From the IMG/VR virus record IMGVR_UViG_3300020187_000029: a DNA stretch of 63,421 nucleotides; one strand, written 5' to 3'. Below the pieces are notes generated by a model. It made no database searches. It was not told the origin of the DNA and saw only the letters and a program-made list of their open reading frames with translations. The position numbers were made by a program, and so were the translations under genes. Position 1 is the stretch's first letter; each line of letters opens with the position of its first letter. Source of the stretch: a virus. Positions 4,586-63,315 of this stretch are shown here, piece after piece.

Positions 4586-4590
4586 AATAT

Positions 4591-4779: not shown

Positions 4780-4859
4780 AACTTACTTGTTACATTTTTT
4801 ACACTTGCTGTAAGGCTTTCCACACTTACACATTTTTTTAATTTTTGAATATGCCATAA

Positions 4860-5759: not shown

Positions 5760-5990
5760 GGGGTTACCAAATTTTACATTTTTTTGCTGTTCGCTCTAAC
5801 TTCATGATTTTATTGAGCGTAACGCTCTTACTCTGATATAGTGCCATAACAATAAATTAAAGGGTAAATATAAAAGAAGTCGTCATTAGGAGCCTAATAA
5901 TTCATTACTCGATCTACTGTTGTAAAAGCCAATCCTGAATTTTAATAATACCCAGAACATTATATTTTATTTTTACCAAAAATCAACAAC

Positions 5991-6587
5991 ATGTCTTTAA
6001 CTGAAATCTTCAACACAGAAGACTTTAAAAAGATGATATTTAATCCATTTAAGGTTAAAGGGTCATTGAAAAAAAAGTTTCCTAAAATGAAAATGTTTAG
6101 CAGTTTCCAAACCGCTGAAGACCAAATGATTGCATATGTTCTTTATATGTATGATCAAAACACACCAATGAAAGAGCAGTTTCCAGATCTTAAAATAAGA
6201 AAGGAGCAGTCCGCTGTTTTATCTGGATATGATCTTGTAAAAGACAATGAGATATTACATGATATGTTTTTTTTCAAATCCACTAAGGTTATAGAAATGG
6301 TGGATGAGTTTTTAAGAAAACAAAACAATAGAATATGGTCAATGATTGTTTCTAATGAGCAAACATTTTTTGAATATCAAAAAAAATTATTAAGTCCTGT
6401 TGAAGGGGAAAGAGATAAAGATATATTACAAGCCTTACAAATAAAGTCTAAAATAATGGACGACTTAAACACTATAAATGATAGGTTGGATTCTTATTAC
6501 ATGAAACTTTATGGTGAAGATCAAGAATTGTTAAAGACAATAAAATCAGATAAAAGATTAACTCCAGAATTCATTGCTAATTTATGA
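5991..6587 (+). CDS. Hypothetical protein (198 aa); small terminase candidate by position only
   Basis: First gene of the late block, overlapping the TerL start. Confidence 0.5.
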   Translation: MSLTEIFNTEDFKKMIFNPFKVKGSLKKKFPKMKMFSSFQTAEDQMIAYVLYMYDQNTPMKEQFPDLKIRKEQSAVLSGYDLVKDNEILHDMFFFKSTKVIEMVDEFLRKQNNRIWSMIVSNEQTFFEYQKKLLSPVEGERDKDILQALQIKSKIMDDLNTINDRLDSYYMKLYGEDQELLKTIKSDKRLTPEFIANL

Positions 6588-32900: not shown

Positions 32901-35162
32901 AATGGACTATCTAAGTTTAGTGCATTGGATGAGAAGAGGTTAGATGACGCTACAGGACCATTAAGAGCATTGAAAATAACTAGCAAAACTCAATCTACAG
33001 GTTCTGTATTGTTGGCTATTTCTGAAAATGAAACAACTGGTATATATCTTGGAGAACAGCAATTACAACAAACCTCTAGTGGAGGACAGTTTTTAGCAGT
33101 TTCTTCTGGAGTTATTGGAACCATGAATACATTAAAAGGATCTTATGGTACAATGCATCCTGAATCTATAGTTGTAAATGAAGGTACAGCATTTTGGTTT
33201 GATGTTAAAAATGAGACAGTTGTTAGATATGATTCTAATGGGTTGACTGCAATTGGAGATAATAAAATGAAAACCTTTTTTAAATCAAAGGCAAATGTAA
33301 TTTTAAATGATTCAATTAAGAATTTTGTTATAGGCACATATGATGATTATAATTCTGAATACATTATATCTCTACCTAGTACAGGTGAGGTAGTTACGGT
33401 TTTACAAGAAGATCCTTATTACCCAGACACACCAGTTATTGACATTACAAATATAGGTGAAGAGCCAACAGATAAGATTGTAAACTATACAATACTTGGC
33501 CCATGGAATATAACAGGAACTGTTACAATAACTAGTGGTGTAGGCCAAATAACATTTGAATCACCATTTAGTTTTAGTATACCTTCGGATGCAATAGAAG
33601 AGCCTGAGAACACAAACATCACTATCATCAATTCAACGTCTGGAGGTTTTAATTCTCCAAACAATGATGGCCAATATATTTCAGGTTCAGGGTCTTTAAC
33701 AGTGTCAAATGTTGGGGGTGACGTAGAACAAATAACAATTAAATTAGCAAGAATTAAAGAATTGGGTGGAGGAGAAGTAGTCGTATCAAATCCTAAATTA
33801 TATTTTAATGACACTAATTTTGTTTTTGGAGAAACTTTAAATGGTAATACCCCAATAAGAATAACTGGTGCTGTAGATAGTACTATACAGAATTTTGAAG
33901 AAAAAGAAATTACAGTATCTTCAGGATCAATAGTTATACCCATAACTACTGGGACTTTTTGGCAATTTGGTAATGATGATGAAAATTCAATAAACTTTAC
34001 AGAATGCTCTCAAGGTGTTTGTACTATTATACCTTCTAATAGAGTGTCAACAACTGCCACTCCAGTTACAGAAGGCTCAGAAAGAATTGGTTATTTATCA
34101 GGAAATTCTAATATTAATATTTCAGGAATAGATGAAGATATTGATTCGATTATCATAGAATCTAGACCACTAAAAAGAGCAGTGATTTCGTTACCAGTTT
34201 ATACTAATGTAGCACCAACATCATTAACCTTTAGAAGTGGAATCGTTTTAAATAGAGAAACTCCTGTTGATTTTGGTTTTGTAATTTCAGAAACAAATAG
34301 TAATCCTGCAATTGGAGATTCAGACGTAACACTTATTGTGGTTGGAACTGCCGCTTCGGATGCGGTTGATTTTAATACTACAGCATCTGATCTTTCACCT
34401 AGTACTACTTACTATGTGAAACCTTTCTTAAGATCTAATTTCGGAACTAGTTATGGATCTTGTGTTCCTAACACTACAGGACAAGAAAACGTAAAACCTT
34501 CAACAGTATACACAGTTCCATTTGATGACACTACTAAAAAGTTTGAAGGAAGAGCAACTATAACAGGTTCAGCAGATCTAGAACAACATGGTTTTGTTTG
34601 GTCTACTTCAGAGACGACCCCACAAATAGGCTATGTAGGTGTAGAACAAATAAATATACCTGTTCCGATTCAAGATGAATATGTCTATGAGTTTGAAAGT
34701 AATGCACGCCTTTTTATACAAGACCTAACATACTATTTCAGGGCATTTGCTATAGATGCAGGAGGAACATATTACGGAGAAGTAAGGTCGTTAATAATAA
34801 CGTCTTCTGATGTAGGGATTGGAAGTTTTAGACTAAGAACATCAGAGGTGCCATACCAAGGCGGATTTGTACAGATTGACGCAATAAAGAGTACACAGTT
34901 AGGTGTGGCTAATGGAACTATTGAGATCGTTGTTTCTTCAGGATTAGAGATTTTAAACACTAGATATCTAAATGTTTCTTTTGACAATAATCAATCATCT
35001 GATACTTTACAAATACAAATACCTAGAAACACAAGTGTTGGTTCAAGAGACTTAAGTTTTAAAGTCCACGCTTTTGATGGTATATCAAACGAAACAGGTA
35101 TTGCGGAACCTGTAAGTATAACTGGAACTGTTTCGCAAAGCGGTTCACCATATCAACCATAA
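29913..35162 (+). CDS. Very large virion structural protein (1749 aa)
   Basis: Uninterrupted 5.2-kb ORF. The function cannot be read from the sequence. Confidence 0.65.
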   Translation: MENSKKTFIAGINADDSFFAHTGQDNLDALNVRVVSSSEGKAGSISNVNGTRNIPNSQDLSRSTKCIGTYEDPTTNNIFYFLVDENPSTRYKASSIYCYKPKEDNIYKVLADSNMEASYRLGFDPEKPITGIAYIDDILYWTGIDGKEPFRINVERGIAANNSQYDADPYNLPIKKSIVTLIRKPPMLPLKITVQEDDTRDTSFLKSRAHTFAYRYVYKDGETSVFSPTSYHYPNQDMDDDNHKTSKKIKVDFPQFEADETGIYQDVHKVQYAVKFDSDTSYFIWKEFDSKTHETEFADQTKSQSGVITADFYNDVLGFAVDDVNSIKLSDAVPYEAEALSIARNRLFLGNIKEGRLNPEQITSEDISLDLLTQSFTDSFNQYDRDRGGKVGFAHSSAYQIGIAFFDFAGRTGGVLTDDSLKVITPERGVDLSTYNSSIRFNLNPSLASKIPDWAEYYAIVRTKNLTKDFTISNLSDKVRYYTTASTGNFTVNVEKNYPVNDENDRKAISDTPNGTFSDAEHVSFRADFEGCAIGLGDLTSYKQGYTYQEGDRVKLITNDGVIEAAVTGQSGRYVTTNLYDLNDEQYLNTSALSNKDYAVVYEIYSPHKIQPNEFYYEAFNGRILRDSSGNASFSNTTEELIGDVYLRKLIADTSALESYFFQGHSSTDSGQDHELKGEIKYIDFPVFYGDGENDLECNTGVNNGSHNLDLRYDIKISSTGTPDKFRWRKRTRTQYTTNVGYSGEVSITGNTQTLDNGVTIKFESTTGHTIDDRWVVNAKIADNSGMNEEHKRYTATWASPPNGTILINSEIKLYLTEYKQGTLVASEDRRTWEVTYPATSVTRTYDNIEELFWESSFGSVVMAAAQGDMDNFSFRRGVVDPSGNGGQTQLNILNYLGSSVSQEVSRSDGSTIHMIYEGVLRKRSGGRNINGNHTMNVDYTDEFPYSAESMNPSNDYFLNWTQITGKPNLVPSEVSSQKKTTAIVFSETKIPGSKINGLSKFSALDEKRLDDATGPLRALKITSKTQSTGSVLLAISENETTGIYLGEQQLQQTSSGGQFLAVSSGVIGTMNTLKGSYGTMHPESIVVNEGTAFWFDVKNETVVRYDSNGLTAIGDNKMKTFFKSKANVILNDSIKNFVIGTYDDYNSEYIISLPSTGEVVTVLQEDPYYPDTPVIDITNIGEEPTDKIVNYTILGPWNITGTVTITSGVGQITFESPFSFSIPSDAIEEPENTNITIINSTSGGFNSPNNDGQYISGSGSLTVSNVGGDVEQITIKLARIKELGGGEVVVSNPKLYFNDTNFVFGETLNGNTPIRITGAVDSTIQNFEEKEITVSSGSIVIPITTGTFWQFGNDDENSINFTECSQGVCTIIPSNRVSTTATPVTEGSERIGYLSGNSNINISGIDEDIDSIIIESRPLKRAVISLPVYTNVAPTSLTFRSGIVLNRETPVDFGFVISETNSNPAIGDSDVTLIVVGTAASDAVDFNTTASDLSPSTTYYVKPFLRSNFGTSYGSCVPNTTGQENVKPSTVYTVPFDDTTKKFEGRATITGSADLEQHGFVWSTSETTPQIGYVGVEQINIPVPIQDEYVYEFESNARLFIQDLTYYFRAFAIDAGGTYYGEVRSLIITSSDVGIGSFRLRTSEVPYQGGFVQIDAIKSTQLGVANGTIEIVVSSGLEILNTRYLNVSFDNNQSSDTLQIQIPRNTSVGSRDLSFKVHAFDGISNETGIAEPVSITGTVSQSGSPYQP

Positions 35163-39674: not shown

Positions 39675-42600
39675 ATGGAAGACGAAGATATCTTAGGAGT
39701 TGATCCTTTTGTAGATTTAAGTACAGAGGAAAAAGAAGATAAATTAATTATTCTTGCGGATAAATTGAGAAAGTCCAGGAATACAGGTATGTCTGGTTTT
39801 GAAATACAAGATATACAAAGTGTTATACCTGACCTTAATCAAAATCAATTTCAAGAGGCTGTAGCCTGGGGTAACACTTTTAATAGAGGTCGTTACGAAC
39901 AAGGTGATGAGTTGAATTCTAAATTTGAAGGTTTATTTCCTGAGTTAGAGGGTGTTCAGTTTCCTGAATATGAAAACAACAACGGTTCTATAAATGTATT
40001 AAATGCCCAAACAAATCCTGATAACGCTCAGGGTAAGTGGGGTAAAATACAAGGTGCTATAGACAAAGGGACTCAGATGTACGATAACCAGGAAGTTGAT
40101 GGTGTTATTGCACAGCCTGGATTGTTGCCAGAAGGAACTGATGAAAGTATAAAAAAGAATTTGATACAATACGGACAGGTGTTAAGACATACTGATCCTG
40201 AGTTTAATAAAAAATACCAACCAGGAGAAGACCCTTTTGAAGATCCTAGGTCTGCATATGAATTTACAAAGCAAGCAAGAAATTTTCAAGGAACTAAATT
40301 TAAAGTTAATGCATTAAGATATATTGCTTCTAACTACGATAAGAATCTATATGATTTTGTAGATAAAAATGAAGACTTTTTTAAGATAATGCCTGAACTG
40401 CGTGAAGATGAAGAGTTCATGAAGATGTATAAATCCCATGAGGATGTAGCATCTAAATATCATGATCATATAAAAGCCAATTTTGGAGATATGTATTCTC
40501 AGGATGCAAGGGATATGCTGCAAACTGCTAGATTAAGTGGGGCTATGGGTCCAGGTGTTGGTGGAATTATGCCTGGTTATCTTGATACTTCTGTTGCAGT
40601 AGGTGTGGGAGCAGTTGTTGAAACTTTAGGAAACTTAGGAGGTGGTCTGTATGAGTTTTTTGCAAAGCATGGCGATAAACTAAATCCAGGGTTATTATTA
40701 GCAGACGCTATAGGAAGTTCACTTGCTTCAGATGAAACAAATGAAAAGTTAGCCGAACTAGATGAAGTATATGACAGACAAGCGGAAGTAACAGCAGATA
40801 AAATCTCCCATTTTTTCTCATCAGATAATTGGAAAGACACATCTTTAGGTCAATATGCATATGTACCTAATGAGGTAGCAGGGGCAGACTTGGCTGACAA
40901 TCCTATGTATATATTACCAATGACATTAAAGACTGTAGGTGAAATGGCTCCTGCGATTGTTGCTGCGGCTTACACAGGTGGAGGTACATTAGTAGCAGGT
41001 TCTATAATGGGGGGTGACCAATTCTTTAAATCTTATCATCAAACAAATAAAGAAGCAAGAGAACTTGGAGTAGATCCAGAAGACGCTGAAGCAATGGCAT
41101 TAAGTATAGCCCTTGTTACTGGTGGTACTAGTGCTTTATTTAATAACCCTTTAGCAAGAAAAGGTGTTGGTGCTATGATGGGTGTAAGACAAAGAGCCAC
41201 AAAAGAAGCGGTTAAAACCTTAGCATCTTCAGGAAGTAGACAAGCAGCAATAAAAGCAGGAGGAAAAGCATATTTAAAAGAAGTTGGAGGTGAGGAGTTA
41301 GAAGAACTTGTACAAGGAGGCTTTGAAAATTATACTAAATACAAGTACGATCAAAACTCTCCAAACCCAGTATATGGTGTAGATAAGTTTATGTCTAAAG
41401 AAGAGTTTACAAATACGGTAATTCTTACTGCAACAGCAACGACTTTAATGGCATCACCAAACCTAGGAATATCTTCATCTCAACTAGAGAAGGAAGCATG
41501 GACAACAGCAGGTTTAGATTATGCCAATTTTGAGAAATCTGTACAAAAAGAATTAAGCAAAAAGAACCCTAAGTTCACTGAGGAAACTGGCCAAGGTATG
41601 TTGGAGAAGGCTAAAGTATATGAAACTATAGTTAAGCCATTAAAAGACTCAGGGGTTAAAATAAATGAGATCACCGAATTGGCTGATGTTGTTTATAATT
41701 CAATGAATGCACCTACACAGCCTGATGCAGAAACATCTGCGGAACCAACTGTAGAGGAAAAGAAAGCAGAAATTAAAAATGGTATACCTAAACAAGGTGC
41801 TATTGTTGACGGAGGCAAAGTTGTTTCTGTAATAGAAAACATAGGAGATAGTGCCACAGATTCTGATTTAAAAACTAAACTAGATAACATCCAGGGTAGA
41901 ACTTTTAAAATGAAAAGGACTTCTCTTGAAACATTATACGAAACAAACAAAGAGTTTAAAAAGTTTGTAGATGAAAATCCTGACATGGTTTATGATGGCA
42001 AGAACAAAAATGCTCCTGCTGTTATTGATAATGAAGGAAATGTTTTAGATGGAATGAAGCGATTGGCTGCTGCATACAACAGAGGCCAAAAAGGAATTAG
42101 AGTTTTTAACGAACAAGAAACCACTGTTTCTAAAGAAGAAGAAACATCTATTGTAAACGCTATAGATAATATTGTATCTCCAACATCGGAGAATAGTACT
42201 AATGAATCTATGCAAGACATAGAAAAAATTGGTAACCATTTTCAAAGAGTGTTCAAAGGATCAACAATAGAATTTGATCAAGAAGTATTTAATGAAGAGG
42301 CCCAAAAAAGAGGATTAGATCCTGCAAAAAACAAAGGGTTTAGAGACAGAAATACAAATCAAATTTATATAAACCCTAAACTTGCTACGCTTGATACACC
42401 TATACATGAGTTTGCTCATATATGGGAAGACATGTTGGCTGAGGTAAATCCAGATGCTCATAAAAAAGCAATGGCTTTAATTAAGGGTACAAAGTTTCAT
42501 AAAGAAGCGGTTGCTAACGGTTATGGCGATAGAGCACTAAACGAGGCTTTAGTACAGGCTATTGGCGAAAAAAGTGCTAAAATATTTAAAGATCCTAAGA

Positions 42601-45600
42601 GACAATCACAGTTTGAAAAAGTAATTGATCAAGTTAAACAGGCAATTAAGCAAGCATTAAACTTACCTGCTGATGCAGATTTTGATATCAAAACAAGTAG
42701 TATTGATGCTGTTATAAACTCAAGTGCTGAGAAAATAATGTCTGCTACAAGTATTGATCCTAATGCAAATAAAGAATCAATTGATGTAGACGCAATTGAC
42801 GCACAGAGATATAAAAACCCTGAGCGTGAAGCAATAAAAGAATTCAATGCGTTAAAAGAAACATTAGAAAACGATCCAACACTATCACAACTTACTCCTG
42901 TGATGAAGGACGGTAAATATCAATTCACTAAAACAAAATCAGGTAAACTAAAAGTTAAAATATCTGGTCAGTCTTATGCTTTGGTTAACGGAGTTAATGA
43001 ACACTTTGAGGGGACTATTGAAGAGAAAATAGACCTGATTGGTGACAAAATTGTAGATGAATTTGAAGCAAATAAGGATGTACCTGAAGTAGTTAAAGGT
43101 TTAGGATGGTATAAAGATTTACATCTAAATATGAGAAACCTCTTTGGAGGTAGAACTAATTTCTTTGGTAGATTATTAGGTGCAACTTCAGGACAGACAG
43201 ATGTACAGCAAAATTACAAATATGCTACTCAAGCATTAGAGGCTTACTCAAAGGGTGCTTATGACAAGTACCTTGAAGAGTATAAAGAGTTTATTGACAG
43301 AGTAGAACAGTTTGAAAACGAAGAGGAATTAAATCAATTCTTTAACGAATATAAGGGAAGAGCAGTAAACGCTTTAAAAAAACAAGGAAAAACTGCTTAT
43401 AGCGAATCAAGAATTAAGCCTGATCCCAAAGACATTAACGAAACAAAAAGAAAGTTATTAAATCTATGGCCAAAGGCTAATCCTTTATATAGAACTGATA
43501 ATCCTACAAAACTATACGGTATTAATAGTCCTGCTGCTGCAAAGGTATTAGCAGGTATATGGTTGCAACAAACTCAGCAATCAAAGACAAATAACTTTTA
43601 TGAAAATGTTGTTGGTTTAACAACAAATCCTACTATTGATTTATGGGCTGCTCGTACAATAAGACGAATGGTTTATGATGGTAATGTTGATAGATACAGA
43701 ATTGCAGAGAGAGCAGAGCAAGGTGTAGATGAAAGAGTTTATGCTGCTGAAGCAGGAGGTTTTTCAGATTATCAATTAGCGGAAGAGGTTATCAAAAACG
43801 CTTCGGCAAAACTAGATATGGATCCCGATGATCTACAGGCATACTTATGGTTTGCAGAAAAGGATCTTTGGTTAAAAAAAGGATGGTCAAAAGGAACTGC
43901 CGCTAAGAAATCTGACTTTAGGGAAGAGGCTGCTAAAGATGATATCACTAGATATTATTTAGGATTAAGTACAGAAAGAGATCAGTATACAGATCCTGAG
44001 TTAGAAGCAAAAGATAACTTAGAGATAATAGAAGAGGAAAGACAGTCTATTCAAAACGACTTAAGAGAGGGTGACCTGGTATCATTAAAAGTAAACGAGA
44101 CACAGGGACAGTATTTAATATATCCTGAAAGAAGTTTTGATGCTGAGATGATTGTAAAATCGGATCAAGATATGACTCCTGTTTTGAAGAGGGCTATTGA
44201 GTCGGCAAAGAAACATGAACAAGAGTCGGTATTCTTGTCAGAGGTATTACCTATTGATGAGAGAATGGATCCTGAAACAATGGAGAGAGAATTGGCTAAA
44301 CGTCCAAACGCTCGGCCTGCTGTTGAAATGCAATTTAGAACTCCTATGAGTTTTGAAGAAGCATCTACTTTTGCTAGAGAAAATTTAGACAAAGAAGGTG
44401 TTCAATTAGGACCAGTAAAAACAGATATTTCTGGTTATACTTTTATAACTAATGAAGAAGGAAATAAGGTCTTAGGTGTTAAGTATCAGTTTGTTCCAGA
44501 GTTTGTTTTTGAAAACGAAGAGGATATTACAGATGATAATGTAAGGCAAGCAGTTAGTGACTGGAGTAATAATGCACATGAAACTAAATTAAATTTAGAA
44601 AACAACGAAAATGTTTTGTACTTTTACAACCATTATGTAGATACATTCGTTGCTCACAATAATCAATACAACGGAATCTTAAATAATATAGAAAATGGAT
44701 CAAAAGACATATTTAAAGGAACTAGCAAAACACGCACAAAGGAATACTTCCAATCAAAGGCCACAAGAGTCGAACCCCAACAAGGAAGTCCAAGTGTCGA
44801 TGCACAAAGACAACAAGATGAAGGGGATAGATCCCGCTTCTCTGGAACTGTATCGCCAAATGATGGCGGATCGATTTCAGGAGTCGAACACAGAAGAATA
44901 GATCAGGCAAAACTACCTGATCAACTTACACAGTTACTTACTACATTAAGTGGACAAGGCATGGTGCCTTCTAAACTTATACCCGCAATTAAGATATATT
45001 CTCAAAGAGTAGATGGTAAAGAACTATCTACTGAACAAGCGAGAATGCTGCTTAATAAATTCATGGGGTCTGAAGGTTTTAGACAAAGAGGATTTGAAAC
45101 AGGATCTATTGAAAATGCTAAGGACAGCGATGAAGGAAAGCAGGAAGTATATGATTGGGTAAACGAAAATCCCAACTATTACCAAACCATGGATATGAAA
45201 CAAACCATGGAACTAGTATTAGATGATATAAATTCTAGAGGTGGTTTTGAAAACGAACAAGTAATAAAAGATTTACTAGGTAGTAATACCACTGTTAAAG
45301 AATTAGCAAGAGTACAGTTAGCACGTCAAGCAGCATTACATCATTACGGATTAAAAGTCAGTAAACTTAGATCGGAGGGTGCATCAGGTGCGGAGATAGA
45401 TTCTGTAATTGATACAATGGCTAAAATAGAACGTGTTTTAGCAAAAGACGCTACAGAAGCAGGACAAGCATCTGCCGCATTAAGATCTTGGACAGCACAA
45501 ACAGCCGCTACATTAATTGACAGGACTGAACGTGCCATGGAGAAGTTTAATGAGGACATGGACAATAAGAGTAAGTTTGGTAATTTTATTCATAGGCTTT

Positions 45601-47885
45601 TTGGAGGTAAACAAAAATTAGAAAGCACAACACTATCACCAGAACAGCGTAAAAAAATTGAAGAGTTACACTCTATAATTAAAGACGCTCCTGCTAACAG
45701 TGAACTTGCTAATGTTGCTATGAGATCTATGTATAAATATATGGATTCGGTATTACCTTCTTACACATGGCAAGACACGTTTTTTGGTTTGCAATACGCA
45801 GCACTTTTATCAGGTGTTTCTACGCAAGTATTAAATGTAACATCAGGTAGTGCAAACATTGTTTTGCAACCGTTAATGGAAATGTCTAGAATAGATAAAA
45901 TATTTACAGGCGGTTACTTTGATTTCATAAGAAAGATTGGTTCTGGCACAAATAAAAAAGGTATGCAGCAAGGTTATAACATGGCTATGGATATCTGGAA
46001 AAATGGAGCCAGGGTAGATAAATACCAGAACTCTGAAAGCACACCAGATGGTGGTCAGTACAATGTTTTAGAAACTACAGAGTTTAAAGGTGGTAAAGCA
46101 AATCCTTACAACTACTATAAGTATGTGGGTAGAATGCTAAATGCTACTGATAGATTTATAAGTAAAGTTGGATATGAAGGTAGATATTATAATTATCTGA
46201 TAGATCAATTAAGAAAAGATGGTGTTCCTAAAAGTCAATTAAGAAAGAGAGCATCAGACTTATACTTAGCAACTGAAGTTAGTAGAACCGCACAAAAGGA
46301 AATGGAAACCTTAATGAACAGAATGCGTGAGGCTGATCCTGATACTGATTTTAGTAATATAGAAGTTGTTAGAGCAAGAGAATTAATGCACGAAGCACTT
46401 GCTTTAAAATATAGTGAGGACTTTGTTGACAAATCAGATGCTGAACTTGAAGTAATGAAGGAAAAAGATGGTTTCGATGGAACCATTGAAGAGTTTAAAG
46501 AATACATGAAGGCCATGAAAGAGGCTGAAATAAACGGTATTGCTACAGACGCTAACCTGGCAAGTAATGCACAGGTGTTTATAGACAATAGACCAGGAAG
46601 TTTTGCTCAACCTATTGCTTGGGTCGCTGAGAAAATTCGACAAGCATCCAATTCACAAAGTATAGGATTTGGTGGAAAACTTGCCATGAAATCATTTGTA
46701 CCTTTTACAAGTATTATTGGTTCAATTGGTGAATATATGATCGATGTTACACCTGGTATAGGTTTAGCAAGAGCATATATGGCTAAGGATGGTTTAGGTG
46801 AAAAAGGATCTAGAATGAGAGATGAACAAATGTCTAGAGCATACTTTGGTACAATGTCGTTTTTAGGTTTAGCAGCACTTGCGGCTAAGGCATATGAAGA
46901 TGATGATGAAGAACCGTTTTTTGAAGTAAGTGGTGGAGGTTACAACAACTCTAACATGTACACTAGAAACGATATGAAGAATGCTGCACTACCTCCATAT
47001 TCTTTTAAAGTTGGTGGTGTAGTTATGGATTATAGAAACATAGTTCCTTTAGCAATTCCAATGGCTATTATAGGTAATTATATGGAAACTCACAAGATGA
47101 CAGGAGGAAAAGGTGAGGTGTTTGATGACATGCAAGATAGATTGCTTATTGCTTATGCAAACTCTGCTAACTTAATTATGGATTCATCTGTACTTACATC
47201 TGTAAAAGAATTAACTGAGGCTATATTTGGTCAAGTAGATGGTAGAGGGTCTCAGTTTGATCCTAATACAGTTAGTGATTCTAGTTTAAATAAAACATTA
47301 CAGCGAATAGGTAAAACATCTATAAAATCTATTGGAGGAACTGTTTTAAGACCACTACCGCAAAACCTAAATTTATTTAGACAAACGACTAAAATTCTTG
47401 ACGCAAACTCATACAGTGCGGGAGATGCTAAAAATGCATTGTTATATGCAGCAGGACTTAGTCAAATTGCAGGTCAACCAAAGGTAGATGTGTTTGGTGA
47501 ACAGGCTAAAAGTTATCCAGGTGAAACAGTAATCCCTTATACTCATTGGTTTGGCTTAAGAGGTGAAGATGCTAGATGGCAGTTTTTAGATAAGTATAAT
47601 GCTTATCCTGGTAAAATTCAAAACAGACCTATGAAAATAGGAAGAGACATGAGAACTCTTACAGATGATGAACTTTACCAACATCAAATAACTACTGGTC
47701 AAGAGTTTAATAAACTCATTACTAATTATATGAGAGGAAGAGGTAGACGTGAAGATAAAATACTTACTTACTCAGGTAGATCTCAAAGCATGCACAAGAT
47801 GAACATTTCTAAAATGTGGGCTGCTGCTCAGGCTAAATCTAAACTGAGAAATAAAAAATCCTGGAGGAACACAATAATAGATTAA
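39675..47885 (+). CDS. Giant polyvalent-type virion/ejection protein (2736 aa) with ParB-like and zincin (HExxH) motifs
   Basis: PAVIDNEGNVLDGMKRLAAAY (nt 42042-42077) resembles the ParB/Srx DGxxRxxAA box. HEFAH lies at nt 42405-42419. Several Gly/Ala-rich hydrophobic segments. Lies directly upstream of the lysis genes. Confidence 0.55.
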   Translation: MEDEDILGVDPFVDLSTEEKEDKLIILADKLRKSRNTGMSGFEIQDIQSVIPDLNQNQFQEAVAWGNTFNRGRYEQGDELNSKFEGLFPELEGVQFPEYENNNGSINVLNAQTNPDNAQGKWGKIQGAIDKGTQMYDNQEVDGVIAQPGLLPEGTDESIKKNLIQYGQVLRHTDPEFNKKYQPGEDPFEDPRSAYEFTKQARNFQGTKFKVNALRYIASNYDKNLYDFVDKNEDFFKIMPELREDEEFMKMYKSHEDVASKYHDHIKANFGDMYSQDARDMLQTARLSGAMGPGVGGIMPGYLDTSVAVGVGAVVETLGNLGGGLYEFFAKHGDKLNPGLLLADAIGSSLASDETNEKLAELDEVYDRQAEVTADKISHFFSSDNWKDTSLGQYAYVPNEVAGADLADNPMYILPMTLKTVGEMAPAIVAAAYTGGGTLVAGSIMGGDQFFKSYHQTNKEARELGVDPEDAEAMALSIALVTGGTSALFNNPLARKGVGAMMGVRQRATKEAVKTLASSGSRQAAIKAGGKAYLKEVGGEELEELVQGGFENYTKYKYDQNSPNPVYGVDKFMSKEEFTNTVILTATATTLMASPNLGISSSQLEKEAWTTAGLDYANFEKSVQKELSKKNPKFTEETGQGMLEKAKVYETIVKPLKDSGVKINEITELADVVYNSMNAPTQPDAETSAEPTVEEKKAEIKNGIPKQGAIVDGGKVVSVIENIGDSATDSDLKTKLDNIQGRTFKMKRTSLETLYETNKEFKKFVDENPDMVYDGKNKNAPAVIDNEGNVLDGMKRLAAAYNRGQKGIRVFNEQETTVSKEEETSIVNAIDNIVSPTSENSTNESMQDIEKIGNHFQRVFKGSTIEFDQEVFNEEAQKRGLDPAKNKGFRDRNTNQIYINPKLATLDTPIHEFAHIWEDMLAEVNPDAHKKAMALIKGTKFHKEAVANGYGDRALNEALVQAIGEKSAKIFKDPKRQSQFEKVIDQVKQAIKQALNLPADADFDIKTSSIDAVINSSAEKIMSATSIDPNANKESIDVDAIDAQRYKNPEREAIKEFNALKETLENDPTLSQLTPVMKDGKYQFTKTKSGKLKVKISGQSYALVNGVNEHFEGTIEEKIDLIGDKIVDEFEANKDVPEVVKGLGWYKDLHLNMRNLFGGRTNFFGRLLGATSGQTDVQQNYKYATQALEAYSKGAYDKYLEEYKEFIDRVEQFENEEELNQFFNEYKGRAVNALKKQGKTAYSESRIKPDPKDINETKRKLLNLWPKANPLYRTDNPTKLYGINSPAAAKVLAGIWLQQTQQSKTNNFYENVVGLTTNPTIDLWAARTIRRMVYDGNVDRYRIAERAEQGVDERVYAAEAGGFSDYQLAEEVIKNASAKLDMDPDDLQAYLWFAEKDLWLKKGWSKGTAAKKSDFREEAAKDDITRYYLGLSTERDQYTDPELEAKDNLEIIEEERQSIQNDLREGDLVSLKVNETQGQYLIYPERSFDAEMIVKSDQDMTPVLKRAIESAKKHEQESVFLSEVLPIDERMDPETMERELAKRPNARPAVEMQFRTPMSFEEASTFARENLDKEGVQLGPVKTDISGYTFITNEEGNKVLGVKYQFVPEFVFENEEDITDDNVRQAVSDWSNNAHETKLNLENNENVLYFYNHYVDTFVAHNNQYNGILNNIENGSKDIFKGTSKTRTKEYFQSKATRVEPQQGSPSVDAQRQQDEGDRSRFSGTVSPNDGGSISGVEHRRIDQAKLPDQLTQLLTTLSGQGMVPSKLIPAIKIYSQRVDGKELSTEQARMLLNKFMGSEGFRQRGFETGSIENAKDSDEGKQEVYDWVNENPNYYQTMDMKQTMELVLDDINSRGGFENEQVIKDLLGSNTTVKELARVQLARQAALHHYGLKVSKLRSEGASGAEIDSVIDTMAKIERVLAKDATEAGQASAALRSWTAQTAATLIDRTERAMEKFNEDMDNKSKFGNFIHRLFGGKQKLESTTLSPEQRKKIEELHSIIKDAPANSELANVAMRSMYKYMDSVLPSYTWQDTFFGLQYAALLSGVSTQVLNVTSGSANIVLQPLMEMSRIDKIFTGGYFDFIRKIGSGTNKKGMQQGYNMAMDIWKNGARVDKYQNSESTPDGGQYNVLETTEFKGGKANPYNYYKYVGRMLNATDRFISKVGYEGRYYNYLIDQLRKDGVPKSQLRKRASDLYLATEVSRTAQKEMETLMNRMREADPDTDFSNIEVVRARELMHEALALKYSEDFVDKSDAELEVMKEKDGFDGTIEEFKEYMKAMKEAEINGIATDANLASNAQVFIDNRPGSFAQPIAWVAEKIRQASNSQSIGFGGKLAMKSFVPFTSIIGSIGEYMIDVTPGIGLARAYMAKDGLGEKGSRMRDEQMSRAYFGTMSFLGLAALAAKAYEDDDEEPFFEVSGGGYNNSNMYTRNDMKNAALPPYSFKVGGVVMDYRNIVPLAIPMAIIGNYMETHKMTGGKGEVFDDMQDRLLIAYANSANLIMDSSVLTSVKELTEAIFGQVDGRGSQFDPNTVSDSSLNKTLQRIGKTSIKSIGGTVLRPLPQNLNLFRQTTKILDANSYSAGDAKNALLYAAGLSQIAGQPKVDVFGEQAKSYPGETVIPYTHWFGLRGEDARWQFLDKYNAYPGKIQNRPMKIGRDMRTLTDDELYQHQITTGQEFNKLITNYMRGRGRREDKILTYSGRSQSMHKMNISKMWAAAQAKSKLRNKKSWRNTIID

Positions 47886-49170: not shown

Positions 49171-49185
49171 TTACAATGTAATTAC
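49167..49185. terminator. Hairpin at the convergent gene junction (GTAATTAC-aat-GTAATTAC)
   Basis: Two self-complementary 8-mers span both stop codons and are followed by TTT. The stem is AT-rich, so the hairpin is weak. Confidence 0.35.
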
Positions 49186-50424
49186 TTTATCCCTCAACAT
49201 TTCAAACATTTCAGATACCCTGTACTTAATTAAAATGTCTGAATGAAACTTTGTATACTTTGCTAACATCATTGGTGCCTGAGTGTCCTTATAATGTTTT
49301 GAAATTGTATTATCTGTTTGAAACATAAGTTCTCTTATATCAGCATCTGGAATACTAATAATGGATCCTGTTGTGTTGAATGCTTTTCTTGCTGACTTAT
49401 AACTATGACCTGTCAATTTCTTGAATTGCATTTGATTGACTTTCCAAACACTATCATCTACCGAACCACTCATTATTGGAAAAAGACTGTCACTGTTTGT
49501 GTTGGTTATATTATTTAATAATCGTATAATTTTCTTTATTGGATCTAGCCCCATATACACTAAGCCCATTTTATTAGTCTTTGATCTAAAGTGTTTGTAT
49601 ACCATATTCTTTTCAGCAAATAAATATGTATTATGATTTTCATAAGTAGAGTTTACAAATGACTTCATTGATAACTTCTCAAGGTCTTTAGCATACATTC
49701 CTCTCATTGAAAACATTAATAAATAAATCAAAATAGATATTACTTCTTTATTAAATTTTTTATCATTGGGGTTTAAGTCTTTAATTACATCAATTAATTC
49801 ATGAGATTTAATCCACTGTGGAGTGAAATTATTTTGTGGATTTGTTCTTACGTGAGGAAAAACATTAAATGTGATTTCATCTTTTAAAGCGTGAGAATGA
49901 ATTGCTTTTATTGCTCTATGATAAGTATTAAATGTAGCAGGACTTCTGCCTCTTTCTAACAGGACTTTTTTAAGTTTCACCCAAACCTGTTTCTGACATA
50001 CATCTTGAAAAGTGAGGTTCTTAATTCCAATATTAGAAGCAACTGATCTTACTTTGTTCTTATAATCATTAAAAGTGGTATCTCTCATTTGATCCTTAAG
50101 ATGATTATCTAGGTAGGAATTAATGTCATTTACATAAGATCCATAGGTTAATCTAGTTTTAGCCTCTTCAAATGTAAGAGTTCCAATAGCACTTTGCATG
50201 TGAAGATCATGAACAACATCCGTTAGTTTTTTTACTTGTTTATTCTTTTGTTCAAAATATGGATGATCAGGTTTTAACCTTTTGTTTTTTTTATCCCAAT
50301 ATTTTTTATACACTTTTATTGAAGTATATATTTTTTTATCTAGCAGTTTATTTTTAAAACGAACATGCAACAATACAGTTCCATCTTTATTAGTTTCGTT
50401 TCTGCTTCCAATTAATAGTCCCAT
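49171..50424 (-). CDS. int: Tyrosine recombinase / integrase (Bacteroidota-type, with an N-terminal arm-binding-like domain)
   Basis: The N-terminus LLHVRFKNKL..IKVYKKYWDKKNKRLK resembles arm-DNA-binding domains. The C-terminus carries MRGMYAKDL (R), LTGHSYKSARKAFNT (H..R) and SKHY (Tyr). Confidence 0.7.
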   Translation of the reverse strand: MGLLIGSRNETNKDGTVLLHVRFKNKLLDKKIYTSIKVYKKYWDKKNKRLKPDHPYFEQKNKQVKKLTDVVHDLHMQSAIGTLTFEEAKTRLTYGSYVNDINSYLDNHLKDQMRDTTFNDYKNKVRSVASNIGIKNLTFQDVCQKQVWVKLKKVLLERGRSPATFNTYHRAIKAIHSHALKDEITFNVFPHVRTNPQNNFTPQWIKSHELIDVIKDLNPNDKKFNKEVISILIYLLMFSMRGMYAKDLEKLSMKSFVNSTYENHNTYLFAEKNMVYKHFRSKTNKMGLVYMGLDPIKKIIRLLNNITNTNSDSLFPIMSGSVDDSVWKVNQMQFKKLTGHSYKSARKAFNTTGSIISIPDADIRELMFQTDNTISKHYKDTQAPMMLAKYTKFHSDILIKYRVSEMFEMLRDKVITL

Positions 50425-51246: not shown

Positions 51247-51630
51247 TTAAAACGGTAGATCAGGACCATCTTGTTTACCATTAACAAAGTTTTCAACCTT
51301 CTGCTCATGAGAATTAGACTTTCCGTTTGGAATGTTTCCATCGGCATAAGTAATTTTCCATGCGTTAGCATTAGCAGTCCTCAACTCTCCGTTACGATCT
51401 CTGTAACTTCTAAGGTTAATAGAAACCAATACTTCGTCTCCGCTTTTGTAAGCACTAAACAAGTTTGCCTTGGCACCAATTGCTTCAACAGGATAGTCTA
51501 CAGGATACTGACTATCAGCACCTAATTCAACTGTTAATACTCTTTTTTCAATCTCTCCTTTTTGAGTTTGAATGGTTTGTGCATCAGAGATGTTTTTGAT
51601 ACGACCTTGTAATTCTAATGAATTGCTCAT
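51247..51630 (-). CDS. ssb: Single-stranded DNA-binding protein
   Basis: OB-fold-sized N-terminal part with an acidic C-terminal tip ...DGPDLPF (the SSB D-D-D-I-P-F type). Confidence 0.6.
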   Translation of the reverse strand: MSNSLELQGRIKNISDAQTIQTQKGEIEKRVLTVELGADSQYPVDYPVEAIGAKANLFSAYKSGDEVLVSINLRSYRDRNGELRTANANAWKITYADGNIPNGKSNSHEQKVENFVNGKQDGPDLPF

Positions 51631-57555: not shown

Positions 57556-58518
57556 TTATTTTATTAACATTTGATTGTGTATTCTTTTTTGTTTTTCTAT
57601 AGAGTCTGAGTTACTGTGCTTTACGTATCTATAAAATGCTTTTGAGCCGTTAGTGTGCCCGCTAATATTCCTGGCCTCGATCTCGCTAAGACCCTTGGAT
57701 AGTTGGTAAGTTATACCGCTTGCTCTTAGTTTGTGGGGAGTTATAAGATCAAACAAAAACTTTTCTTCATGCACAGGGTTACCGTTATGATCATAACTGT
57801 ACACTATTTTCTTTTTATGAAATTCATTATAAAACTTAAGCAGTTCTTTAAGTCTTACTCTAAAGTATTGTTGTGACTGAGAAAAGGATCCCTTGCCCTC
57901 CAGGAATTTTAAAACATCATCAGGTAAGTAAAAAGAAGATATTGATCCTACTCCTTTTTTAGTAATTATCGTAACAACACTGCCATCTGAAGAGGCCTGG
58001 AAGTTTACCAGGTCACTTACTCTCATGCAAGAGTATAGCATAAGCCTGGTGTAGTACCATATATCCTGGAGTTCGATTCCTGGGTTGTTGTTATGTATAA
58101 GTTCTACTTGTGATGGCTCTAGAGCAATGACCTCCGTTTGAAGTTCCTTCATGCTCTGTAGTCCAGGAAACAGGTAACCATAATATGCTTCTGCTTTTTT
58201 AAGAGTTGTTCTTATTATTTTTAAATGTGTTTTCCTGGTGTTATGATGTTTGCAATCTTCTAGCATCATGTTGAGGTACTTATTTACGTGCGTCTGTAAA
58301 TTTCGGGTGACCTTCAATCTATCCTTTCTACTGTTTACGCTATTAAGATCTAAAGCATCTACATTAAAGTTATAATTGTATGCAGACATTTGATTGTATA
58401 CCTGTCTGTAGGAAGTTATAGTAAGGTTTGAAAATTTCTTTCCATAATTCAATATAGATCCATCCTCTAGTAAAGTAATGACTTGTTTCAGTAAGTGTAA
58501 AAAGGTTCCAGGCTTCAT
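57556..58518 (-). CDS. Tyrosine recombinase (second copy, short Xer/integrase-like)
   Basis: CMRVSDL (R), TPHKLRASGITY (HxxR) and SGHTNGSKAFYRYV (H...Y). Confidence 0.8.
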   Translation of the reverse strand: MKPGTFLHLLKQVITLLEDGSILNYGKKFSNLTITSYRQVYNQMSAYNYNFNVDALDLNSVNSRKDRLKVTRNLQTHVNKYLNMMLEDCKHHNTRKTHLKIIRTTLKKAEAYYGYLFPGLQSMKELQTEVIALEPSQVELIHNNNPGIELQDIWYYTRLMLYSCMRVSDLVNFQASSDGSVVTIITKKGVGSISSFYLPDDVLKFLEGKGSFSQSQQYFRVRLKELLKFYNEFHKKKIVYSYDHNGNPVHEEKFLFDLITPHKLRASGITYQLSKGLSEIEARNISGHTNGSKAFYRYVKHSNSDSIEKQKRIHNQMLIK

Positions 58519-58558: not shown

Positions 58559-58813
58559 TTAATCGTTGATGATGTCTATTATCTCATCAGCAACCTTACC
58601 GTAATAGTCTATTATTTTGCAAGACTCTTCAAAAAATAAAGGAGATGCTCCTGTCTTCTTTTGATTTAGAGTGCTCTTCTTTTTTTTGGTACCGTAAACA
58701 TATTCGCAAACCTCGGTGGTCGGTAGATGGGTGAGTTGCAGCAGATTGTACGCTGTCTTTTTAAACCTTTCATGGGATCTATATTTGATCCTTAAATTTT
58801 TTTCAGTTTTCAT
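58559..58813 (-). CDS. Hypothetical protein (84 aa)
   Basis: ORF. Confidence 0.55.
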   Translation of the reverse strand: MKTEKNLRIKYRSHERFKKTAYNLLQLTHLPTTEVCEYVYGTKKKKSTLNQKKTGASPLFFEESCKIIDYYGKVADEIIDIIND

Positions 58814-60729: not shown

Positions 60730-61040
60730 TATTCCTCTTCTTTTAAAACTGTTAATAAATCCTTAAACACATCTATAAATCTGCATTCAAGTTCGTTTTC
60801 TGAAAACTCTATACGGTTTCCTGTATGTTGTAAATCAATACAGCCTATGTCTGTAGAAAAATCTTCAAATCCATTTTCAGTAAATATCCTTTGGATCTCC
60901 ATCATGGCTAGTTTAACTTTTAACTTTGCTTCAACTACTATGTCATCAGGGTTTAAATTAGTTTTCTTAAGTTCTTGTTTGAAGTAGGTATTTACTTCTC
61001 CCATTGTGTAATCTTCGGTATCAGTTATTAAGTATTTCAT
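60729..61040 (-). CDS. Hypothetical protein (103 aa)
   Basis: ORF. Confidence 0.55.
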   Translation of the reverse strand: MKYLITDTEDYTMGEVNTYFKQELKKTNLNPDDIVVEAKLKVKLAMMEIQRIFTENGFEDFSTDIGCIDLQHTGNRIEFSENELECRFIDVFKDLLTVLKEEE

Positions 61041-61477
61041 TATGAGTTGGTGTTTAAAATTGCGTAAATATTATCTATACATTCGCCATCACTTGGTGGC
61101 TCTTCGTTTGAGTCGGCCTCGTATTCTACCAGGTCCATGATCGCCTCAATTACTCTCATCATTCCAAAGCCTTCTGCTTTTTCTGTAGAGTTTCCGCTGT
61201 CTAATAATTCCTGGGCTTGTTCCTTTAGGCTGTAACGATTTGGGGTGACCTCCTCTTTGTCTTCAACCCAAGGACATGCTTTATTGTATAGAGAGAGAGC
61301 AAGTGTCTCATCGCCTATAGCAGTCATAAGAATATTTAATTCACCTCTTTGTGCTCTACCTCTTCTATAAACTCCAGGATCTTCTGATCTCTCGAAGTGC
61401 CAATCGTGAGAGGTTAACGCTTTTTGTAATTTAATGATCGCATTTAATTTTAATTGAACAGTTTGCATGATTTTCAT
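61040..61477 (-). CDS. Hypothetical protein (145 aa from the ATG at 61477)
   Basis: The track start at 61492 is a TTG lying inside hammerhead stem I. The first ATG (MKIMQTV...) lies 16 nt downstream of the predicted ribozyme cut. Confidence 0.55.
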   Translation of the reverse strand: MKIMQTVQLKLNAIIKLQKALTSHDWHFERSEDPGVYRRGRAQRGELNILMTAIGDETLALSLYNKACPWVEDKEEVTPNRYSLKEQAQELLDSGNSTEKAEGFGMMRVIEAIMDLVEYEADSNEEPPSDGECIDNIYAILNTNS

Positions 61478-61488
61478 TTTTAAGTTAT

Positions 61489-61540
61489 ACAAAGACGCTT
61501 CGCAGCGTTTCGCCTGGATCTCACAGGCTCATCAGTTTGT
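61489..61540 (-). ncRNA. Type-I hammerhead self-cleaving ribozyme (HH-A)
   Basis: Minus strand: ACAAA|CUGAUGA|GCCUG-UGAGAUC-CAGGC|GAA|ACGCU-GCGA-AGCGU|C^|UUUGU. All invariant core positions are present. Predicted cut after C at 61494. Confidence 0.85.
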
Positions 61541-61702
61541 TTATCCCAGGAAACCAAAAGTTGCGTTAGGATCTATACCTTCTGTTACCAGGTGAAAGAT
61601 TAGCATTGTGAATGATACAGCCCATACAGTAAATAAAGATCCTATAAAGGTTTTTGTTGCGATTGTTTGAATTTTGTTTAACATGGTTTTTCAGTTTAAA
61701 TT

Positions 61703-61855
61703 ATTAATTGATTATTTGTTGTAGTTCATTAAGTTGATAAGATCGGATTGCTCTCCTACTAAGTTCATTGCTGTTAACAATGCTAGTCCTAGAAAAGTAA
61801 TTGCTAATGCGACTACTGTTGCGACTAGTACTAATTTTAATTTTGATTTTGACAT
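61703..61855 (-). CDS. Small protein (50 aa) with an N-terminal hydrophobic segment
   Basis: Hand-translated codon by codon: MSKSKLKLVLVATVVALANYFSRTSIVNSNELSRRAIRSYQLNELQQIIN. Its ATG lies 27 nt after the HH-B cut. It replaces the plus-strand ORF 61734-61934. Confidence 0.45.
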
Positions 61856-61876: not shown

Positions 61877-61926
61877 GACAATGACGCTTCGCAGCGTTTC
61901 GATCATAAAGATCTCATCAGATTGCC
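61877..61926 (-). ncRNA. Type-I hammerhead self-cleaving ribozyme (HH-B)
   Basis: Minus strand: GGCAAU|CUGAUGA|GAUC-UUUAU-GAUC|GAA|ACGCU-GCGA-AGCGU|C^|AUUGUC. Predicted cut after C at 61883. Stem I overlaps the UAG stop of 61926-62171 by 1 nt. Confidence 0.85.
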
Positions 61927-62171
61927 TAGTATAGTTCCTTGTCTACTTGCATCCATAGATTATAAACATAGTTGTAATTGGTGCCGATCATATTGGCAAG
62001 TTGCTCAAACAATCTCTCTCTTACCAGGCTGTCATCAACACCTATGTAGAGGTAAACATCAGCACCTGTATGTAAGCAATCCATTAAGGCTACAAATGTT
62101 GTTAAATTGATTTCAGATCCCAATTCATCTGTTGGGTATTTTTCCTGGTAGAATTCTCTTAATGTTAACAT
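61926..62171 (-). CDS. Hypothetical protein (81 aa)
   Basis: ORF preceded by the conserved leader motif. Confidence 0.55.
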   Translation of the reverse strand: MLTLREFYQEKYPTDELGSEINLTTFVALMDCLHTGADVYLYIGVDDSLVRERLFEQLANMIGTNYNYVYNLWMQVDKELY

Positions 62172-62181
62172 AGTTTTCAGT

Positions 62182-62517
62182 TTAAATTGTTTGTGTGTAT
62201 AATTCGTTTGTTACTTCTTCGCCTATTATATAAACAATCATGTTTACAGTAGTTTCCGCATTGTCGTAAGTTCTTACAGCATCATCACCAAAATTTTCTC
62301 TCTCGTAGTTCTGTACAAATGCGATTGCTTCAAAAGGATCAATGTTGTGTTTTTTTAACCATTGGCTACAGTTGTAATAACCGATTAAATAATAATCATT
62401 GTTGAATGCTTCCTGGTGTAGGTCGTTATCATCGCTATTCCATTTAACATCGTTGTTATCAGCGATAAAATCATTTAAATACTCTTTTAGTTCAGTTTTG
62501 ATTGTTTCAGTATACAT
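62182..62517 (-). CDS. Hypothetical acidic protein (111 aa)
   Basis: ORF preceded by the conserved leader. Its ATG lies 25 nt after the HH-C cut. Confidence 0.55.
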   Translation of the reverse strand: MYTETIKTELKEYLNDFIADNNDVKWNSDDNDLHQEAFNNDYYLIGYYNCSQWLKKHNIDPFEAIAFVQNYERENFGDDAVRTYDNAETTVNMIVYIIGEEVTNELYTQTI

Positions 62518-62538
62518 TGTTTTCAGTTTAAATTATTA

Positions 62539-62590
62539 ATCAGACATCCCGAAGGATGTTTCGCCTGGATCTCACAGGCTCATCAGTGAT
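62539..62590 (-). ncRNA. Type-I hammerhead self-cleaving ribozyme (HH-C)
   Basis: Minus strand: AUCA|CUGAUGA|GCCUG-UGAGAUC-CAGGC|GAA|ACAUCC-UUCG-GGAUGU|C^|UGAU. Predicted cut after C at 62543. Confidence 0.8.
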
Positions 62591-62591
62591 C

Positions 62592-62867
62592 TTATGCTCG
62601 TGCTACAATTCCGTCTAGAGTGTCGGCAATTGCGTGTAGATCTCTAAGCATCATAATATCATGTGAGTATAAACGATCAGCCTCGGCTCTAAGATTTGTG
62701 TAGTAGTAACCGTCATAGATACCGTAAAGAGAGTTGACCAAATCTGATGCTCTAAAGCCTCCGTTACGTAGGTTGTGAATTGTTGTTTGGATAAATGACA
62801 TCATCATTGGATTGAATGTTGTGTATCTATCGAATCTTTCTGTGGTGTTGTAGTTTGAATTTTGCAT
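62592..62867 (-). CDS. Hypothetical protein (91 aa)
   Basis: ORF. Confidence 0.55.
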   Translation of the reverse strand: MQNSNYNTTERFDRYTTFNPMMMSFIQTTIHNLRNGGFRASDLVNSLYGIYDGYYYTNLRAEADRLYSHDIMMLRDLHAIADTLDGIVARA

Positions 62868-62967
62868 TTTATTTTCAGTTTTAATTAATTAGTTATTAGT
62901 AGTTGTTACTTCTCATGAAGGTTGCAAATAATGCGATTGGAATTGCTAGTGCTATTAAGATCATGGC

Positions 62968-63282: not shown

Positions 63283-63315
63283 CAAATATAACGCATTATT
63301 TTATTAACATCCAAA
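63283..63315 (-). promoter_or_regulatory. Candidate early promoter, Bacteroidota sigma-A type (TTTG-N21-TATATTTG)
   Basis: On the minus strand the -33 TTTG is at 63315-63312 and the -7 TATATTTG at 63290-63283, about 70 nt upstream of the first early ATG. Confidence 0.5.

Follow-up and report, generated by a model that had tools for sequence, protein, structure and literature searches.

Candidate type I hammerhead ribozymes at gene boundaries of a crAss-related podovirus of Bacteroidota

Introduction

Two small minus-strand genes near one end of a viral DNA of 63,421 nucleotides (IMG/VR record IMGVR_UViG_3300020187_000029, the whole of which is hereafter called the window) are separated by a short segment, HH-C, that a sequence-only reading had taken for a hammerhead ribozyme. 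The locus thus raises the question of whether this segment encodes a self-cleaving RNA and, if it does, what cleavage would mean for the messages of the adjoining genes. Clustered hammerheads flanking genes were described in prophages by Perreault et al. (2011; PMC3088659), who proposed that they process polycistronic RNA; arrays were reported for Clostridium scindens, Azorhizobium caulinodans and the ardA locus of Agrobacterium tumefaciens, with cleavage demonstrated in vitro for three arrays and in vivo for the A. tumefaciens set. A review of 2019 still counts the biological role of hammerheads in bacteria and phages among the unsettled questions (PMC6765202), and in the literature that we searched no paper ties hammerheads to crAss-like, Flavobacterium or Cellulophaga phages. 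Here, we addressed the structure of HH-C, its conservation in related phages and in a wider family, and the roles that it may play within the gene cluster.

Materials and Methods

The window was scanned with a CUGANGA...GAAA pattern, by which two further elements, HH-B and HH-A, were first located, and with a descriptor that demanded, in addition to CUGANGA, GAA and H17, hairpins with minimum stem lengths of 3 bp (stem II) and 4 bp (stem III, closed by A-U) and no fewer than 4 bp in stem I. A covariance model derived from six relatives was run across the whole window with filters off. For the wider family, a relaxed pattern (CUGANGA-N5-UGAGAUC-N5-GAAA) was used, with a slightly stricter version for cellular genomes and metagenomes, and a covariance model run across 47 sources gave 86 matches, 48 of them distinct, from which the covariation alignment was composed.

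Results

The window codes for a large terminase, a portal protein, a primase-helicase and very large structural ORFs, and its TerL shares 31-33% identity with those of Flavobacterium elemo phages, Cellulophaga phages and an uncultured podovirus. Judged from TerL similarity and gene content, the window is assigned to a crAss-related podovirus of Bacteroidota. Giant ORFs follow the head genes in a crAss-like pattern (Table 1), the largest of which could be a candidate virion RNA polymerase-like protein. Two minus-strand ORFs (49171-50424 and 57556-58518) give weak PHROG integrase matches (E = 1e-8 and 6e-13), unexpected in a crAss-like lytic podovirus, and a tRNA gene at 148-221 on the minus strand (67.1 bits), with the anticodon loop CU-UCU-AA, suggests tRNA-Arg(UCU).

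Table 1. Coordinates of the described features (window positions unless an accession is given; ^, predicted cut)
Feature	Position	Strand	Description
Giant ORFs	39675-47885, 29913-35162, 22299-26282, 16811-20413	+	2736, 1749, 1327, 1200 aa
AAACUGAAAA copies	58800-58809, 61688-61697, 62174-62183, 62520-62529, 62872-62881	-	each just upstream of a minus-strand start codon
g1	61040-61477	-	CDS, ~145 aa; first gene past HH-A
HH-A	61489-61540	-	type I hammerhead, ACAAA-CUGAUGA-GCCUG(UGAGAUC)CAGGC-GAA-ACGCU(GCGA)AGCGU-C^UUUGU
g4	61541-61684	-	47-aa hydrophobic ORF; HH-B to HH-A segment
g5	61712-61855	-	47-aa hydrophobic ORF; HH-B to HH-A segment
HH-B	61877-61926	-	type I hammerhead, GGCAAU-CUGAUGA-GAUC(UUUAU)GAUC-GAA-ACGCU(GCGA)AGCGU-C^AUUGUC
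g8	61926-62171	-	CDS, 81 aa; HH-C to HH-B segment
g7	62182-62517	-	downstream CDS, 111 aa; phrog_10208, function unknown
Leader after predicted cut	62518-62542	-	25 nt, UGAUUAAUAAUUUAAACUGAAAACA, up to ATG at 62517
HH-C	62538-62591	-	complete type I hammerhead, 54 nt, GAUCA-CUGAUGA-GCCUG(UGAGAUC)CAGGC-GAA-ACAUCC(UUCG)GGAUGU-C^UGAUU; sequence reading, descriptor, covariance model, covariation
HH-C stem I, 5' strand	62591-62587	-	GAUCA, pairs with 62538-62542
HH-C core	62586-62580	-	CUGAUGA
HH-C stem-loop II	62579-62575, 62574-62568, 62567-62563	-	GCCUG, loop UGAGAUC, CAGGC
HH-C GAA	62562-62560	-	
HH-C stem-loop III	62559-62554, 62553-62550, 62549-62544	-	ACAUCC, loop UUCG, GGAUGU
HH-C C17	62543	-	GUC triplet 62545-62543; predicted cut between 62543 and 62542
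HH-C stem I, 3' strand	62542-62538	-	UGAUU
g0	62592-62867	-	upstream CDS, 91 aa; no known family match
HH-B-like hammerhead, Flavobacterium phage vB_FspP_elemoA_7-9A	NC_055852.1 (L049) 17289-17348	-	type I; between gp69 and gp67

Direct reading of the minus strand shows the entire conserved hammerhead core in HH-C, CUGAUGA / GAA / GUC (C3-A9, G12-A14 and N16.2 U16.1 H17), with loops capping stems II and III and only stem I continuing into the flanking RNA, which is the type I topology. All coordinates given in the sequence-only reading, including those of the GUC cleavage triplet, are correct to the base, and its identification of a hammerhead is borne out by the canonical core, the registers and the covariation of the stems. 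Its 4-bp stem I (AUCA, 62590-62587) was composed of correct pairs but was drawn one pair too short: the U-G pair that it had offered as a possibility is a real fifth pair, represented by G.U, G-C or A-U among orthologues. The UAA stop codon of g0, which had been placed next to stem I, is indeed found at 62594-62592, directly adjoining the 5-bp stem, and the leader that had been proposed to reach from the cut to the AUG is the one listed in Table 1.

The descriptor matched at exactly three places in the window, whereas 300 first-order Markov simulations of the window gave no match. With the covariance model from relatives, HH-C, HH-A and HH-B scored 87.8, 68.8 and 24.9 bits, and no other credible match was obtained in the window; a fourth one at 51310-51357 on the minus strand (18 bits), having the non-canonical core CUUAUGC and lying inside a 127-aa ORF, was dismissed as chance.

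All three elements occupy the coding strand between genes within 1.1 kb and bound segments of 388 and 661 nt. The genes of this run, all small and on the minus strand, follow a non-coding stretch that occupies the end of the window. Each begins at the stop codon of the preceding gene or at most one base from it: HH-A adjoins a UAA at 61541-61543, and the first stem I base of HH-B is the G of the upstream UAG. Their stem I sequences are mutually unrelated, yet all of them pair, and HH-A appears as a mosaic, its 28 nt of core plus stem II matching HH-C and its stem III matching HH-B. Thus at least two hammerheads of the same strand flank genes within what is probably a single phage transcription unit, a polycistronic minus-strand early RNA with a putative promoter. 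In the non-coding stretch upstream of this gene run, the minus strand at 63283-63315 carries TTTG, 21 nt and TATATTTG, which we take to resemble the Bacteroidota sigma-A promoter consensus (-33 TTTG, -7 TAnnTTTG) and consider a candidate promoter. Searches of Pfam and PHROGs gave no informative family for the proteins flanking the hammerheads.

The predicted downstream fragment of HH-C begins at 62542 with 5'-UGAUUAAU, and its leader includes a recurrent translation-initiation motif, AAUUUAAACUGAAAA. The inner part of this motif, AAACUGAAAA, is present in five copies in the window against 0.87 expected and resembles a translation-initiation leader specific to the phage, whose hosts belong to a group without strong Shine-Dalgarno use. 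At HH-A, the cut precedes the ATG of g1 by 16 nt; with initiation at the second ATG the distance would be 25 nt.

The exact 29-mer comprising core and stem II is present in 16 IMG/VR loci, and the descriptor retrieves orthologous HH-C, HH-B and HH-A from them. Five distinct HH-C haplotypes from about 16 contigs have a mean identity of 94%, as compared to 79% for the adjoining 87 nt of coding sequence, and their ungapped alignment contains 8 variable columns, all of them structure-neutral. In stem I, C-G is replaced by U-A at pair 2, and G.U by G-C or A-U at pair 5; the remaining variable columns are an A-U to U-A exchange in stem III, the core position N7 and loop III, so that compensatory changes in stems I and III are observed without any gap. 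In the HH-A and HH-B orthologues the core likewise varies at N7 only (CUGACGA in some HH-A, CUGAAGA in one HH-B, that of L001); three stem III variants of HH-A and a 6-nt loop of HH-B (L027) are also found.

The close relatives invariably have HH-C after g0 and HH-A before g1, the two bounding a region of variable gene content. The window has g7, g8, HH-B, g5 and g4 between them; one group of relatives has g7, g19 and g20 and lacks HH-B, and another has g8, HH-B, g5 and g4, with g8 in place of g7. HH-B accompanies the g5-g4 pair in every related locus. Six relatives (L004, L007, L009, L010, L011 and L016) carry a fourth hammerhead, with the loop II UGUAACU and a long stem III, in front of a 227-aa gene (for example, L004 2405-2460, plus strand); the window has neither this hammerhead nor the gene. 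An HH-B-like type I element is also found in Flavobacterium phage vB_FspP_elemoA_7-9A (Table 1), where it is overlain by gp68, a small annotated plus-strand ORF (17275-17382) that may be spurious. A second candidate in that genome, near 19112 on the minus strand, was not accepted: its stem II is present, and neither stem III nor stem I was found. DNA similarity search with the early region and a 58-nt element against deposited phage genomes returned nothing useful, BLAST being unsuited to such a motif.

Beyond close relatives, the relaxed pattern revealed 34 viral loci, only one of which resembles a chance match, and its stricter version revealed 12 loci in bacterial or archaeal genomes or MAGs and 69 in metagenomes. 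The same architecture recurs across genomes of 34% to 72% GC, and in dozens of unrelated contigs stem II covaries under the fixed loop UGAGAUC (GCCUG, GCCGG, GCUGG, GCCCG, GACCG, GCCAG and others). In the alignment of 48 distinct sequences, which is fitted to the structure model and composed of phylogenetically non-independent sequences (the ungapped comparison of orthologues is free of the fitting problem), 97.5% of pair cells are paired against 30-37% in slid registers, double-sided changes occur in 14 of the 16 pairs, and none of 500 shuffles matches any of these measures. Only two pairs are invariant, G10.1-C11.1 (G-C in 48/48) and A15.1-U16.1 (A-U in 44/44), and precisely these were named the most conserved hammerhead pairs by Perreault et al. 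(PMC3088659).

Among 105 distinct elements, with other core positions fixed by the descriptor, N7 is U in 55, C in 37, A in 11 and G in 2, and H17, for which the descriptor excluded G, is C in 90, A in 13 and U in 2. Pairs 1-4 of stem I are paired by construction of the descriptor and pair 5 in 81% of the elements; positions 6-10 of a distal extension are paired in 21-36%, which corresponds to background, and stem I therefore ends after about 5 bp. In 45 cases the upstream ORF ends 0 to +2 nt from stem I, in 13 at the core UGA and in 9 at the loop II UGA, and the distance from the cut to the start codon is mostly 23-31 nt across the family. Arrays are frequent in the family. One of them, at ~3170-7840 of the phage contig L092, consists of eleven type I elements spaced by 208-634 nt, with one between nearly every pair of small genes; ten of them are seen again at ~5090-9600 of L034, which is the same phage, and L086 (~320-2480) holds seven elements in 2.7 kb.

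Other structured RNAs were encountered in the vicinity of some members. Subclass hammerheads flank a tRNA gene in Propionibacteriaceae and Propionicimonas MAGs (L038 4509-5556, minus strand, and L046), the elements at 4763-4831 and 4944-5012 surrounding the tRNA at 4852-4924, while a GOLLD RNA adjoins at 5128-5556 and itself includes a tRNA. Within about 0.4-0.6 kb of other members are a twister-P5 ribozyme (L037 5347-5402, minus strand, 42.3 bits) and a type II hammerhead (L005 1191-1254, minus strand, 47.9 bits). Taken together, the comparison places HH-C, as far as sequence and predicted pairing can tell, in a widespread and stereotyped type I subclass with a 5-bp open stem I, flanking unpaired adenines, a 5-bp stem II and the loop UGAGAUC.

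No Rfam hammerhead reaches its gathering threshold in the window. The sub-threshold scores of HH-C are 22.8 bits for RAGATH-1 (RF03152; gathering score 56.3) and 21.9 bits, in a wrong register, for Hammerhead_3 (RF00008; gathering score 48.5). The Rfam scan of ten other loci reported the type II hammerhead, twister-P5 and GOLLD RNA near some members and no subclass member at gathering score. Since the core itself is canonical, the shortfall is attributed to the architecture of the models.

In minimum-free-energy folds of 106-116-nt contexts, stem I is absent for all three elements, two GC-rich hairpins dominate, and the folding z-scores are unremarkable; the evidence for the structure is thus comparative and not energetic. 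The loss of stem I in these modelled folds fits a need for tertiary support and is also the main internal weakness of the case. The concern voiced in the sequence-only reading that stem I may be too weak is eased by its length of 5 bp, typical for the subclass, and is kept alive by the context fold. In the fold of HH-A an upstream CCUGGG competes with stem II. The end of the coding sequence preceding HH-A (UUCCUGGGA, 61545-61560, minus strand) can form a duplex with UCCAGG, the 3' strand of stem II (61516-61522, minus strand), and this modelled alternative may be either a switch that responds to translation or fortuitous.

No change in loop II, UGAGAUC, is seen in HH-C or HH-A, and 63 of the 105 distinct members share it, the scan patterns having required this loop. 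The unpaired positions next to stem I are rich in adenine: 2.6 is A in 81% of the 105 elements, 2.7 in 67% and 1.6 in 60%, with 1.7 enriched too. Among 50 GC-rich loci, with a background A frequency of 0.20, 38 have A2.6 (p = 5e-17) and 26 have A1.6. The adenines on the 5' side are usually the AA of the UAA stop of the upstream gene. They are nevertheless more than stop codons, because A2.6 is retained in 19 of 30 cases having no stop trinucleotide there. Inspection of the flanks in the window and in the family revealed no Watson-Crick pseudoknot or covarying partner of loop II; a GAUCU complement 3' of the element in the actinobacterial L038 and L046 was rejected, as it is missing from the window and fails to covary with variants of the loop. 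A contact of loop II with the stem I extension, as suggested in the sequence-only reading, would agree with the constancy of that loop and the conservation of the unpaired adenines, and UGAGAUC is regarded as a candidate tertiary-contact element.

Discussion

HH-C is very probably a functional, cis-acting, self-cleaving hammerhead ribozyme of type I. This assignment follows from the presence of all defining sequence and secondary-structure features, from a core variable at N7 alone and from compensatory changes in all three stems. That the motif arose by chance, or represents plain intergenic hairpins (terminators or RNase processing sites) devoid of catalysis, is hardly credible. The two GC-rich hairpins that dominate the predicted fold, the lack of an Rfam family at gathering score and a consensus scan that flagged HH-A stem III with the following CUUUGU as terminator-like speak for such hairpins, but the descriptor found nothing in 300 simulations, the architecture is the same in genomes of 34% to 72% GC, HH-C and HH-B are not followed by a U-tract, and a terminator would not constrain single-stranded CUGANGA and GAAA to invariance while the stems change by compensation.

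Two other readings accept the ribozymes and differ as to their main role. Hammerhead-bounded segments could be circularised or spliced, either by the reverse reaction or by an RtcB-type ligase, which would agree with the gene-length spacing of same-strand elements (388 and 661 nt in the window, 208-634 nt in the larger arrays) and with the chemistry of the ends, since 5'-OH and 2',3'-cyclic phosphate termini suit RtcB; we consider RNA end-joining very improbable as the main role, however, for the three stem I sequences differ, so that no ribozyme assembled in trans across a junction is evident, and no ligase gene was noted in the flanked cassettes by Pfam and PHROGs searches. Perreault et al. 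raised the same possibility, sought spliced or circular products and found none (PMC3088659). The hammerheads might instead be mainly a footprint or vehicle of gene-cassette mobility, marking recombination junctions with little direct effect on expression. Variable gene content between HH-C and HH-A in close relatives, the tie of HH-B to g5-g4, the mosaic of HH-A (28-nt core and stem II as in HH-C, stem III as in HH-B) and the same stem-loop II in unrelated phages all point in this direction, and yet as the principal explanation it is decidedly unlikely: purifying selection acts on catalytic nucleotides and pairing and not on sequence identity, which argues for an RNA function, and copies of the leader motif AAUUUAAACUGAAAA are found at the breakpoints too and could themselves mediate the exchange. 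Mobility is in any case compatible with self-cleavage and does not exclude it.

Separation of messages by self-cleavage would proceed as follows. HH-C would be transcribed within a minus-strand polycistronic RNA of small early-region genes, and its three-way junction would fold once RNA synthesis has passed the 3' strand of stem I. Docking of loop II on the adenines beyond the 5-bp stem I probably keeps this stem parallel to stem II. Hammerheads cleave 3' of C17 and leave 2',3'-cyclic phosphate and 5'-OH ends, and the cut of HH-C would accordingly come after C17 (Table 1). Owing to the type I topology, the upstream message, whose last gene is g0, would keep the ribozyme body, stem-loops II and III included, and terminate in a 2',3'-cyclic phosphate, and the downstream message of g7-g8 would start with a 5'-OH and a short unstructured leader before the start codon. 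Cleavage at HH-C, HH-B and HH-A would then split the early operon RNA into three or four mRNAs of cassette length, in which the structured 3' end of each piece, together with the defined short 5'-OH leader of the piece that follows it, would uncouple stability and translation between cassettes, making translation and decay of each piece independent of what lies upstream, as in an insulator. We give this mRNA-separation and insulator role roughly an even chance.

Similarity to known systems is partial in each case. Like the arrays of Perreault et al. (PMC3088659), the window has several same-strand hammerheads around single genes or short blocks of unrelated small phage genes; it differs in belonging to a crAss-related podovirus of Bacteroidota, in having all three elements of type I with a stem-loop II shared by HH-A and HH-C, in their stereotyped placement, the ribozyme abutting the stop codon and about 25 nt separating the cut from the start, and in that cleavage is predicted. 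With the type I hammerheads represented by Hammerhead_1 (RF00163, clan CL00010) and Schistosoma Sm-alpha, HH-C shares the core CUGANGA, GAAA and UH and a three-way junction with open stem I; the Schistosoma element also has a proximal stem I of 5-6 bp and then unpaired nucleotides opposite a loop II of 6-7 nt. In the Schistosoma hammerhead the contact between the bulge and loop II is located beyond the proximal stem I. In contrast to RF00163, the subclass of HH-C has no distal stem I helix and resides in bacterial or phage mRNA and not in satellite repeats, and none of the models of clan CL00010 reaches gathering score on the subclass members scanned. Of the Rfam models, RAGATH-1 gives the highest score in the correct register and is likewise a type I hammerhead whose open stem I has 5 bp, but it has an extra hairpin 5' of stem I, which its alignment leaves essentially unmatched in HH-C, and a minimal stem II of about 1 bp, whereas HH-C has no such hairpin and a full 5-bp stem II.

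As in synthetic insulators of the RiboJ type, the predicted cut lies just upstream of the ribosome-binding region and would produce a defined short leader independent of upstream sequence. RiboJ, an engineered derivative of a satellite hammerhead of type III, keeps a hairpin on the downstream cleavage product, whereas the ribozyme body of HH-C would remain with the upstream one. HHphage of haloviruses HF1 and HF2, for which the mapped 5' end of the transcript is near the cleavage site (PMC3088659), is a single element with a variant core, working at high salt in an archaeal host, in contrast to HH-C, which stands in an array.

The position of the elements at stop codons admits one more proposal, that the subclass is a translation-gated ribozyme, which we regard as unlikely. 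A ribosome terminating or paused at the stop codon would unfold stem I and the tertiary contact, so that translation of the upstream gene would set the moment of cleavage and of release of the downstream message. Besides the stop codon, two in-frame UGA triplets are found in the core of HH-C, and loop II contains another UGA.

The stereotyped features of the subclass are worth recording, even though they have possibly been described already, and they mark a gap in annotation: as no scanned member attains an Rfam gathering score, routine annotation leaves the subclass unmarked. Since both the elemoA phage and its host are cultured, the hypotheses of RNA processing, insulation and translational gating are directly testable. 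The arrangement as such has been known in phages since 2011, and the present locus extends clustered hammerheads to crAss-related phages of Bacteroidota. In a reading linked to translational gating, the elements would constitute natural insulator parts, letting phages exchange small gene cassettes while the expression of their neighbours stays undisturbed.
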